From assembly GCA_038046385.1 (NCBI GenBank), contig JBBSWH010000006.1, positions 125 to 64,124 of the forward strand: 64,000 bases of DNA, given 5' to 3'. A program made the translations under genes and the position numbers. The notes under the pieces are model-generated. The model made no database searches, was not told where the DNA came from, and worked only from the letters and a program-made list of their open reading frames with translations. Positions 7,207 through 61,342 of the stretch are shown in pieces; the first letter of the stretch is position 1, and every line of letters begins with the position of its first letter. Source of the DNA: Nanobdellota archaeon (lineage in GTDB: Archaea; Nanobdellota; Nanobdellia; Woesearchaeales; GW2011-AR4).

Positions 7207-7214
7207 TTTAAAAT
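7207..7214 (+). promoter_or_regulatory. TATA box for SRP RNA
   Basis: TTTAAAAT lies about 20-25 nt upstream of the predicted 5' end of the SRP RNA. Confidence 0.45.
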
Positions 7215-7231
7215 CAATATATATTCTACAA

Positions 7232-7528
7232 CACCGGAGGACTCTGCCGGGAGGTTAGCACTCTCCTGTTAGCGCTAACGTGCTTCAAGCGCGGTGAAGT
7301 TTGGAAAGAGGCATAGGCTATTGCATTTGGTCTTGATCCCTACGTCGAGACTTTGCCCCATAGGACTGATGTTTTTGAAAATCCGTCAGGTCTGGAAGGA
7401 AATGTGCGAAAACACACCTAATGCAGCGGTAATCTTGAGCATTGGTGCTTATGGGTTACAGAGTTGAGGAAGGAACAAGGTAGCTAAATGTGACGGTTTA
7501 TGCCCATTTCTAAGCGCGTCCTCCACTT
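7232..7528 (+). ncRNA. ffs: Signal recognition particle (7S) RNA
   Basis: GC-enriched non-coding stretch. GTCAGGTCTGGAAGGAA (7385-7401) and GCAGCGGTAA (7423-7432) match the universal helix-8 GNAR-tetraloop region GUCAGGUCCGGAAGGAAGCAGC. The 5' GGAGGAC (7236-7242) pairs with the 3' GTCCTCC (7518-7524), followed by an oligo-T run. Ends are approximate (+/-10 nt). Confidence 0.7.
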
Positions 7529-7578: not shown

Positions 7579-8364
7579 ATGCTTTTGAGCATGGATAGTG
7601 CATGTTTAGTAACTCAAAATTTTAAAGATAATTCTAGTAGAGATTACCCCTATGGGGAGCAGATTATCATAGAAAATAATTTTATGAGGGTGCCAAGATC
7701 AATACACAGGCTTAAATGCCCGGATAAGCTTGATGAAGATTTGGCTTATTTAAGCGGCTATCATTTAGGGGATGGGTATCTTGAAGATTCAAATAAAACG
7801 TTTGAAAGAAGGAGAAAAGCAGGCTATGACATAGTATATGCAGATAGAGACCTTCACCAGATTGAATTAATAGGAAAAATTATTTATGAGGAGTTTGGTT
7901 TAAAATTAAATATATACAAAAGAAAGAATAGCGATGTGTACATAGGAAGGGCAAATTCCTGCAAAGTTCTTCATTGGTTTATGAATAAAAAGATGGGATT
8001 GCCAATAGGAAGAAAACACCATATAGCGATACCGGAATGGATACTAAAAAACGAGAAATTTTTAGCTAATTTTATAAGCGGTTTTTTTGATGCTGAAGCC
8101 GATATTAGTAAGACTACAAATCATGCCTATAAAATCATTAGGATACAATTCACTCAAAAAGATAAATTTGTAATAGATAACTTAAAAGAATTGTTATACT
8201 CTGTTTTTGATATTAGATCCGTTGTAAGCAAAAAGTGGAATCAGAATGCTTATCAACTGCACGTATTAGGCAAGAAAAATGCTGTTAAGTTCAAAGAAAA
8301 AATAGATTTTAGAAATGTTATTAAAAGGCAAAAATTGGAATGTTTTTTACAGGATTTTAAATGA
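7579..8364 (+). CDS. Double-motif LAGLIDADG homing endonuclease (free-standing)
   Basis: Two LAGLIDADG motifs: LAYLSGYHLGDGYL and LANFISGFFDAEADI, about 100 aa apart. TATTTAAAG TATA-like box about 20 nt upstream of the ATG. Confidence 0.8.
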   Translation: MLLSMDSACLVTQNFKDNSSRDYPYGEQIIIENNFMRVPRSIHRLKCPDKLDEDLAYLSGYHLGDGYLEDSNKTFERRRKAGYDIVYADRDLHQIELIGKIIYEEFGLKLNIYKRKNSDVYIGRANSCKVLHWFMNKKMGLPIGRKHHIAIPEWILKNEKFLANFISGFFDAEADISKTTNHAYKIIRIQFTQKDKFVIDNLKELLYSVFDIRSVVSKKWNQNAYQLHVLGKKNAVKFKEKIDFRNVIKRQKLECFLQDFK

Positions 8365-54407: not shown

Positions 54408-54431
54408 GCAAAATCTTATCCTAAGCTCTAT

Positions 54432-54556
54432 GCGGGGATGCCGGAGTGGCCAAACGGGACAGACTCAAGTGGGTACCTATTTTAGGTCATGCGGAGTAAA
54501 TTCCTAAGTTATCTGTTAGCTTAGTGCTTACGCAGGTTCGAATCCTGCTCCCCGCA
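54432..54556 (+). tRNA. tRNA-Leu (anticodon CAA) with a 41-nt intron at the canonical 37/38 position
   Basis: Manual fold: acceptor GCGGGGA/TCCCCGC, D arm CCG-GAGTGGCCAAA-CGG, anticodon stem ACAGA/TCTGT with loop CTCAAG-[intron 54470-54510]-A, long variable arm TAGCTTAGTGCTTAC, T arm GCAGG-TTCGAAT-CCTGC, discriminator A. Confidence 0.85.
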
Positions 54557-54561
54557 TATTT

Positions 54562-61022: not shown

Positions 61023-61068
61023 AGAGGATATTCTTTGTGTTTGTGTATATATAAGTTTCTAAAGAGAA

Positions 61069-61185
61069 TACGGCTGCCGGGATTCGAACCCGGGTAGCAA
61101 GCTCTCGCCGACTTCGTCTGCGAATACTTCTCGAACATCTCGGAGTCTTGGGAAGCTCGAATAATAGCCACTATATCACAGCCGT
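61069..61185 (-). tRNA. tRNA-Gly (anticodon CCC) with a ~45-nt intron in the anticodon loop
   Basis: Manual fold of the minus strand: acceptor ACGGCTG/CAGCCGT, D arm ATAT-AGTGGCTA-TTAT, anticodon stem CGAGC/GCTTG with loop TTCCCA-[intron]-A, variable CTAC, T arm CCGGG-TTCGAAT-CCCGG, discriminator A. Pairs C2:G71 and G3:C70 fit Gly identity. Confidence 0.7.
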
Positions 61186-61342
61186 ATAATAATGACGTAA
61201 TTGTTATTTATTATAAATTTTATTGTGAATTTTTGATGTTACTCATTAGATAATAAAATTACAAACTCAAAACATAAAATTTAAATATAAACCCAACCAA
61301 AAAATTCCGAAAGGTGAGAATATAGACAAAAACACAGATGCA

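Follow-up and report, generated by a model that had tools for sequence, protein, structure and literature searches.

The window analyzed here is a stretch of 64,000 nucleotides from a groundwater Woesearchaeota archaeon whose genome (G000; 1.28 Mb) is 85% complete. Searching with Infernal, we located a match to the Rfam family RF01857 (Archaea_SRP) on the plus strand at positions 7235 to 7525, covering model positions 1 to 317 (100 bits; E = 1.9 × 10−21) and exceeding the gathering score of the family (96.5 bits) over the full model. This was the only SRP RNA match when the genome was searched with RF01857. The gene specifies a precursor of 291 nt, with a fold z-score of −5.6 relative to shuffled sequences. 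A TATA-like box (TTTAAAA; plus strand, 7207 to 7213) lies 22 to 28 nt upstream of the RNA 5′ end and, judging from its sequence, may serve as the promoter, and a poly-T run is present 3′ of the gene end. Helix 6, the SRP19 site, comprises 5 bases in the RF01857 alignment compared to 40 in the model. This short form without helix 6 is usual across the order, with lengths of approximately 270 nt in a sample of 151 genomes. The best match to SRP19 in the 85%-complete genome scored 15.9 bits, below the Pfam cutoff, and the SRP54 gene is intact, with its M domain encoded on contig C1 (67528 to 67830). A free-standing LAGLIDADG endonuclease gene with two motifs (7579 to 8364, plus strand; PF14528, 55 bits) starts 54 nt 3′ of the SRP RNA gene. 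At a metagenome locus (L136), a copy with 61% identity adjoins the SRP gene at the equivalent position and in the same direction; no LAGLIDADG gene was seen beside the SRP gene in the available flanks of other relatives.

The gene departs from the family model in helix 8. Between CCGUCAGG and GCAGCGG, both of which align to helix 8, Infernal left 32 bases unaligned compared to 11 in the model, an excess of 21, and the Rfam model alignment places the extra bases (7402 to 7422) between GGAAGGAA and GCAGC. The contiguous helix 8 motif (a GNAR tetraloop, a 3-bp stem, and AGCAGC) is thus interrupted by 7402 to 7422; once these bases are deleted the motif is complete, and the product is the core of 13 congeners. 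A first-pass annotation of this DNA had claimed that a 21-nt insert, ATGTGCGAAAACACACCTAAT, divides the SRP RNA helix 8 core into GTCAGGTCTGGAAGGAA (7385 to 7401) and GCAGCGGTAA (7423 to 7432). The letters and coordinates were accurate, and the Infernal alignment to the Rfam model confirmed the split. It had also allowed for a misalignment, which was not borne out, because the 27-nt core of congeners, CCGTCAGGTCTGGAAGGAAGCAGCGGT, runs uninterrupted. On the basis of the covariance model alignment, the congeners, and the cut rule for bulge-helix-bulge (BHB) motifs, we propose that the plus-strand gene consists of exon 1 (7235 to 7401), which ends in GGUCUGGAAGGAA and provides the helix 8 5′ strand, the GGAA tetraloop, and its 3′ stem; a 21-nt BHB-type intron (7402 to 7422); and exon 2 (7423 to 7525), which begins with GCAGCGGUAA, the 3′ strand of the helix 8 symmetric loop. 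The exons also contain letters characteristic of this species, for example, ACTGATG at 7366 to 7372 and CTTGAGCATTGG at 7434 to 7445.

Distribution of the insert among relatives

We searched all 43 genomes of the genus and recovered 35 SRP RNA genes, of which 22 carry an insert of 21 to 78 nt and 13 have none. The site is constant, lying between GGAARGAA and GCAGCGGT in all 22 carriers from the genus, and removal of the insert always restores an uninterrupted core. Three of the 13 insert-less genes have the exact 27-nt core of the window. Exon identity between congeners and the window does not exceed 83%. Further insert alleles of 20 to 30 nt were found in metagenome contigs. In the 151-genome sample, two genomes from other families of the order (G113 and G179) have an insert of 21 to 22 nt at the same site. 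The SRP54 M-domain site is contiguous in 139 matching SRP RNAs from the other genera of the order, except in two with a similar insert.

Three further SRP RNAs of unusual length were considered as carriers of helix 8 inserts and rejected. In G170 and G182 the difference in length is due to the helix 6 region. In G084, 61 bases are located at the helix 6 position and the helix 8 5′ strand is unclear. The SRP RNA of G084, a member of another family (L162; contig C4, 72228 to 72550, minus strand; 323 nt, 94.4 bits), is poorly aligned along this strand and may contain an insert elsewhere.

When mapped onto a tree of the SRP exons, presence or absence of the insert requires approximately 10 changes, of which well-supported branches force at least 4. 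One tight clade contains inserts of 0, 0, 22, and 52 nt. Every loss is precise and restores the ancestral core. Insert-less congeners scored 97 to 115 bits against RF01857 and insert-bearing ones 42.6 to 100.5 bits; 17 of the 35 SRP RNA matches of the genus fall below the covariance model threshold. For annotators, the insert is a concrete reason for the sub-threshold scores of DPANN SRP RNA genes.

Fold and covariation of the insert

The first-pass annotation had folded the insert as a TGTG/CACA hairpin flanked by AGG/CCT pairing, and both elements are present in the minimum free energy fold of the whole RNA. This fold was essentially right and is refined here: the central helix is AAGG/CCUA (an A·A mismatch plus three pairs), the bulges are AA↓A and AU↓G (arrows, predicted cuts), and the outer helix is almost absent. 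In the window, the exon strand of the central helix H (AAGG, 7396 to 7399) faces the insert strand (CCUA, 7417 to 7420), a pairing assigned from the register shared by the alleles and from covariation between 7398 and 7418. The 5′ bulge, AA↓A (7400 to 7402), with a predicted cut after 7401, is unpaired in the minimum free energy fold and in 29 of 29 alleles. It is followed by the inner hairpin h′ (7403 to 7416), formed by UGUG (7403 to 7406), the loop CGAAAA (7407 to 7412), and CACA (7413 to 7416). The 3′ bulge, AU↓G (7421 to 7423), has a predicted cut after 7422, and its closure on the outside is a single G7395-C7424 pair. All of these elements lie on the plus strand.

One register fits all 29 distinct alleles, and the intron that it predicts is the observed insert. 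In this layout, exon AARG faces insert CYUA in a helix of four positions, with 3-nt bulges AA↓W and AN↓G; other families have AAUG as the exon strand and CAUU as its partner in the insert, and some alleles have CAUU or CCUU. The h′ hairpin is 4 to 9 bp long in 27 alleles and 2 bp in the other two, and on the 3′ strand it passes directly into CYUA and then AN↓G. Both polarity and spacing are those of an archaeal BHB, with a helix and then a bulge on each strand and four positions between the bulges. Three or four of the four H positions are paired (3/4 in the window, 4/4 in four alleles), the outermost being an A·A mismatch in 25/29 alleles, and the length of the 5′ bulge is exactly 3 nt throughout (29/29). 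The strict hBHBh′ form has an outer helix h that closes the 3′ bulge; here, h is 1 bp in every allele. These are weak points of the intron reading: because the outer helix amounts to one G-C pair and the outermost H position is mostly mismatched, the 3′ site lies in an internal loop, not in a clean bulge, and the motif fits only the relaxed HBh′/BHL class.

When both bulges are cut after their second base, GGAARGAA and GCAGC result exactly, and the joined core is that of the insert-less congeners. In the window, this standard BHB cut rule gives 7402 to 7422, precisely the boundaries that had been drawn in the first-pass annotation. Presence of a BHB motif alone was dropped as evidence: a naive scan finds many equally good chance motifs in the SRP RNA, and since BHB-like patterns are common by chance in structured RNA, the motif by itself proves nothing.

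Covariation was quantified in two alignments. In 15 short alleles (alignment A1), 98% of cells were paired, compared to 76% after shuffling and 15 to 39% when partners were slid. All five stem pairs of h′ have changes on both sides, with 97% of cells paired. In 21 alleles (alignment A2, which takes in those of other families and of metagenomes), the exon-insert pair was AU in 10, GC in 8, UA in 2, and GU in 1 and was unpaired in none, and 0 of 500 shuffles reached the observed covariation score; these counts are drawn from relatives that are not independent. A sign test on supported branches had 3 independent contrasts to work with; each pointed the expected way, but they are too few for significance alone. 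In the mature form, the exon base of this pair has a second partner within the UCY-GGAA-RGA tip, a structure preferred by RNAalifold; the consensus keeps the tip hairpin, whose pair 16-21 is UA, UG, or CG. In the window, the tip predicted from this consensus (UCU-GGAA-GGA, 7391 to 7400, plus strand) competes with H for G7398 and G7399. That one exon base maintains two pairings that exclude each other is expected of a precursor that refolds after splicing and, as read from these alignments, would be hard to explain if the insert were a permanent expansion.

The longest inserts have 77 to 78 nt and occur in three congeners (G004, G019, and G021; L027:374-450, L034:218-294, and L035:154-231). They keep the UCAAC/GUUGA stem of short alleles and hold a two-hairpin repeat of approximately 62 nt inside the h′ loop, part of which is also retained in a 36-nt allele. 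Because the long alleles add only this repeat within the h′ loop, the interior of the insert is free to vary; the conserved part consists of the BHB-forming ends only. Across the genus, copies of the repeat number in the dozens and occur in 31 of the 43 genomes. A 144-nt tRNA gene (L065:1456-1599, minus strand) encloses one of them, and a second copy is directly adjacent to a tRNA gene (L067).

Between the two fates considered in the first-pass annotation, excision via a BHB-like structure and retention as an expansion, comparison of the SRP RNAs of relatives supports excision. A retained, lineage-specific expansion would be an extra hairpin emerging from the 3′ strand of the symmetric loop, forming a three-way junction that SRP54 tolerates. 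RNAalifold prefers just such an arrangement for 15 alleles, predicting the proximal stem, the GGAA tetraloop hairpin, and the insert hairpin together. Compensatory changes preserve the insert hairpin, and the signs of its removal in RNA, described below, are not species specific. Nevertheless, we regard retention as improbable. It leaves unexplained why 7418 tracks 7398 in three pair types with 0 mismatches among 21 alleles, and this very pairing destroys the GGAA hairpin that an expansion needs. Equally unaccounted for are lengths ranging from 20 to 78 nt with a nested mobile repeat, losses that repeatedly and precisely return the gene to the ancestral core, and a BHB cut rule that lands on the exact boundaries. 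In addition, the SRP54 M-domain site, uninterrupted in all but two of the 139 SRP RNAs of other genera mentioned above, is divided by the insert.

Splicing enzymes, other inserts of the genus, and RNA data

EndA enzymes of the alpha4 type were classically regarded as strict in specificity, a point against cleavage of a relaxed motif. The EndA of the host (200 aa; N and C domains, 97.5 and 56.9 bits) is encoded approximately 8 kb past the end of the window (contig C6, 72116 to 72718), and its closest solved relatives are the Nanoarchaeum equitans alpha subunit and the Methanocaldococcus jannaschii alpha4 enzyme. It is alpha4-like and lacks the additional loop adjoining the catalytic His of the N. 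equitans alpha subunit. No second PF01974 match, which would represent a further EndA subunit, was found in the 85%-complete genome. The RtcB ligase is matched with 536 bits, such that both enzymes called for by a BHB intron are encoded by the host. Alpha4-type EndAs have been reported from DPANN lineages in which disrupted tRNA genes are numerous (Kaneta 2018; PMC5829648).

In this genome, the RtcB gene itself is interrupted: a 31-nt insert with an H-B-h′ motif (L053:2742-2772; contig C19, 25345 to 25375, minus strand) contains an in-frame TGA, shifts the frame, and leaves the gene in two frames. Its fold consists of the H strand GGGG, the bulge AU↓U, a stem of approximately 10 bp, the H strand CCCU, and UG↓A, with an outer helix h of 0. 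Applied to this gene, the cut rule gives ...HWGY↓GFPIGG..., and the resulting DNA joint, GGGGAT↓ACGG, is the exact sequence of the uninterrupted gene of a congener (G017). Compensatory changes are seen in the insert stem of another (G052). RtcB was matched in 33 genomes of the genus: 12 genes are uninterrupted at 1314 nt, and at least 15 of the 33 genomes have inserts of approximately 28 to 45 nt with stop codons or frame shifts. Because the rule restores the uninterrupted RtcB sequence, inserts with a minimal H-B-h′ signal are evidently removed by splicing in this genus.

The tRNA genes obey the same rule. ARAGORN detected 24 of them in the genome, with introns in 19, some with two; the canonical introns at 37/38 conform to the cut rule, several with three of the four H pairs. 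The window contains tRNA-Leu(CAA) with a 41-nt intron at 37/38 (54431 to 54557, plus strand) and tRNA-Gly(CCC) with a 45-nt intron at 37/38 (61068 to 61186, minus strand), and because both genes have introns, ARAGORN with default settings reports zero tRNAs there. A tRNA-Ala(GGC) gene elsewhere (L154:23-146; contig C11, 129712 to 129835) carries 32-nt D-loop and 21- to 22-nt variable-loop inserts. The latter was parsed as UGGG, UG↓A, CAUG-AUAAAA-CAUG, CCCA, and UA↓A, in which UGGG and CCCA form H; parsed as 21 nt, it has the layout of the SRP insert (1+4+6+4+4+2). Parses of tRNA introns are confined to clear cases. Deleting one or two BHB candidates from intron-bearing tRNA genes by brute force and judging the products with ARAGORN was abandoned, as it gave hundreds of false solutions.

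RNA data bearing on the joint came from two groundwater metatranscriptomes (X18 and X19), in which contigs cover 7356 to 7401 deeply and leave 7408 to 7420 uncovered; contigs end at 7401 and resume at 7423. One contig matches 7355 to 7401 (0 substitutions, one gap) and then runs into GCAGCGGTA, and another, from 7423 onward, has TCTGGAAGGAA before it. The junction-spanning contigs are 35 to 76 nt long and could stem from a close relative that lacks the insert, given that other contigs in these runs have 2 to 3 letters not matching the window. These metatranscriptomes give weak support to a joint between 7401 and 7423. Contigs from near relatives start at 7234 to 7237, right after adapter letters. 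In a further RNA run (X13), which contains a fraction of 0.32 of the sampled words, no contig covered the locus, an absence without evidential weight. Among JGI metagenome contigs, nothing was found with the exact flanks and 0 to 30 nt between GGAAGGAA and GCAGC, such that this search yielded neither insert-less DNA nor RNA of the species.

Contigs that stop at 7401 and start at 7423 are also what would be seen if the insert were cut out and the ends never rejoined, leaving a two-piece SRP RNA (7235 to 7401 and 7423 to 7525) held together by helix 5/helix 8 pairing, and the halves do pair extensively in the predicted fold. We nonetheless consider this very unlikely: the two RNA-library contigs described above cross the joint (...GGAAGGAA + GCAGCGGTA and TCTGGAAGGAA + GCAGCGG...), RtcB is encoded, and the insert in the RtcB mRNA needs ligation for that gene to be translated. 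That the insert is an assembly artifact, a mark of a decaying SRP RNA pseudogene, or a random mobile-element insertion is hardly credible; the covariance model score of 100 bits is barely over the family threshold and long alleles contain a multicopy repeat, but a 10-kb contig from a DNA run (X2, possibly the source of the window itself) carries the insert with zero differences, the gene is the sole SRP RNA gene of the genome with conserved and well-folded exons alongside an intact SRP54, and the same structured ends recur in 29 alleles. At least half of the sampled words of the stretch were present in nine DNA runs from four studies, X2 among them.

A proposed splicing pathway and its relation to known systems

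Taken together, we consider it likely that 7402 to 7422 is a relaxed (HBh′-type) BHB mini-intron in SRP RNA that is removed by EndA and RtcB. In the precursor, exon AAGG (7396 to 7399) would pair with insert CCUA (7417 to 7420), and the UGUG/CACA hairpin of the insert would stack on this helix, leaving AA↓A (7400 to 7402) as a 3-nt bulge and AU↓G (7421 to 7423) as the symmetric 3′ site. We infer that EndA cleaves the SRP RNA after the second base of each bulge and that RtcB ligates 7401 to 7423 to give an RNA of 270 nt. The spliced exon could then refold into the universal UCU-GGAA-GGA tip, directly followed by AGCAGC, which together would constitute the SRP54 M-domain site. Because the insert shows the typical features of a BHB intron and no other SRP RNA gene was found, the SRP of this archaeon very probably depends on the tRNA-splicing enzymes. 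We lean slightly toward a broader proposal, namely, that both SRP RNA and RtcB mRNA are matured by the tRNA-splicing enzymes via minimal H-B-h′ signals genus-wide and sporadically in the order.

What is new here is a colinear SRP RNA gene split within the SRP54-binding loop. Splicing of this gene would tie protein targeting, an essential process, to the tRNA-splicing machinery: if the proposal is true, protein targeting needs tRNA splicing, and the RtcB ligase must seal its own mRNA. Likewise, the mini-introns would be mobile elements that are often gained and lost, with a multicopy hairpin repeat nested in some and a LAGLIDADG gene adjoining the SRP gene. The 29 alleles form a natural series from 0 to 78 nt in which the retained features of the signal can be mapped. 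A further addition is evidence of an alpha4-like EndA lineage that uses a minimal signal without an outer helix.

BHB splicing is textbook knowledge for archaeal tRNA, rRNA, and one mRNA (cbf5). In the literature searched, no intron inside an SRP RNA gene has been reported. Published work links BHB motifs to SRP RNA only through the permuted gene of Thermoproteus, for which an ancestor with introns was postulated but not seen. The SRP RNA of Thermoproteus tenax and T. uzoniensis is permuted and circularized (Plagens 2015, eLife; PMC4731332), and the permuted genes were suggested to derive from an ancestor "with simple BHB introns" (PMC4731332). The pathway proposed here shares with that system a BHB motif, a cut by the tRNA splicing endonuclease, and joining by RtcB. 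However, the Thermoproteus gene is permuted, its BHB forms from leader and trailer, and its product is circular, whereas the gene in the window is colinear and its proposed 21-nt intron lies internally, in helix 8; moreover, Thermoproteus is a crenarchaeon, and the host here is a DPANN archaeon.

The closest match in motif is to pre-tRNA introns with relaxed BHBs (hBH, HBh′, and BHL; Marck and Grosjean 2003, as reviewed in PMC6379350; Fujishima 2011, PMC3239211). Like these, the SRP insert combines a central helix of 4 bp with a 3-nt bulge and an inner helix, its second site lies in a loop that is poorly closed, and it is small and has been gained or lost between closely related genomes; broad-specificity enzymes are implied in both cases. 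In contrast to them, the host gene encodes SRP RNA, which offers no tRNA body for recognition, and the EndA genes found here amount to a single alpha4-like one.

A third comparison is with BHB introns beyond tRNA, in archaeal rRNA and in the cbf5 pre-mRNA of Crenarchaeota (Yoshinari 2006, cited in PMC6379350). The SRP insert would likewise extend BHB splicing past tRNA, and the insert in the RtcB mRNA of the genus is the closest parallel to cbf5. The host genes and the lineage differ from those of the cbf5 and rRNA introns, and the inserts described here are mini-introns of 20 to 33 nt that lack an outer helix.
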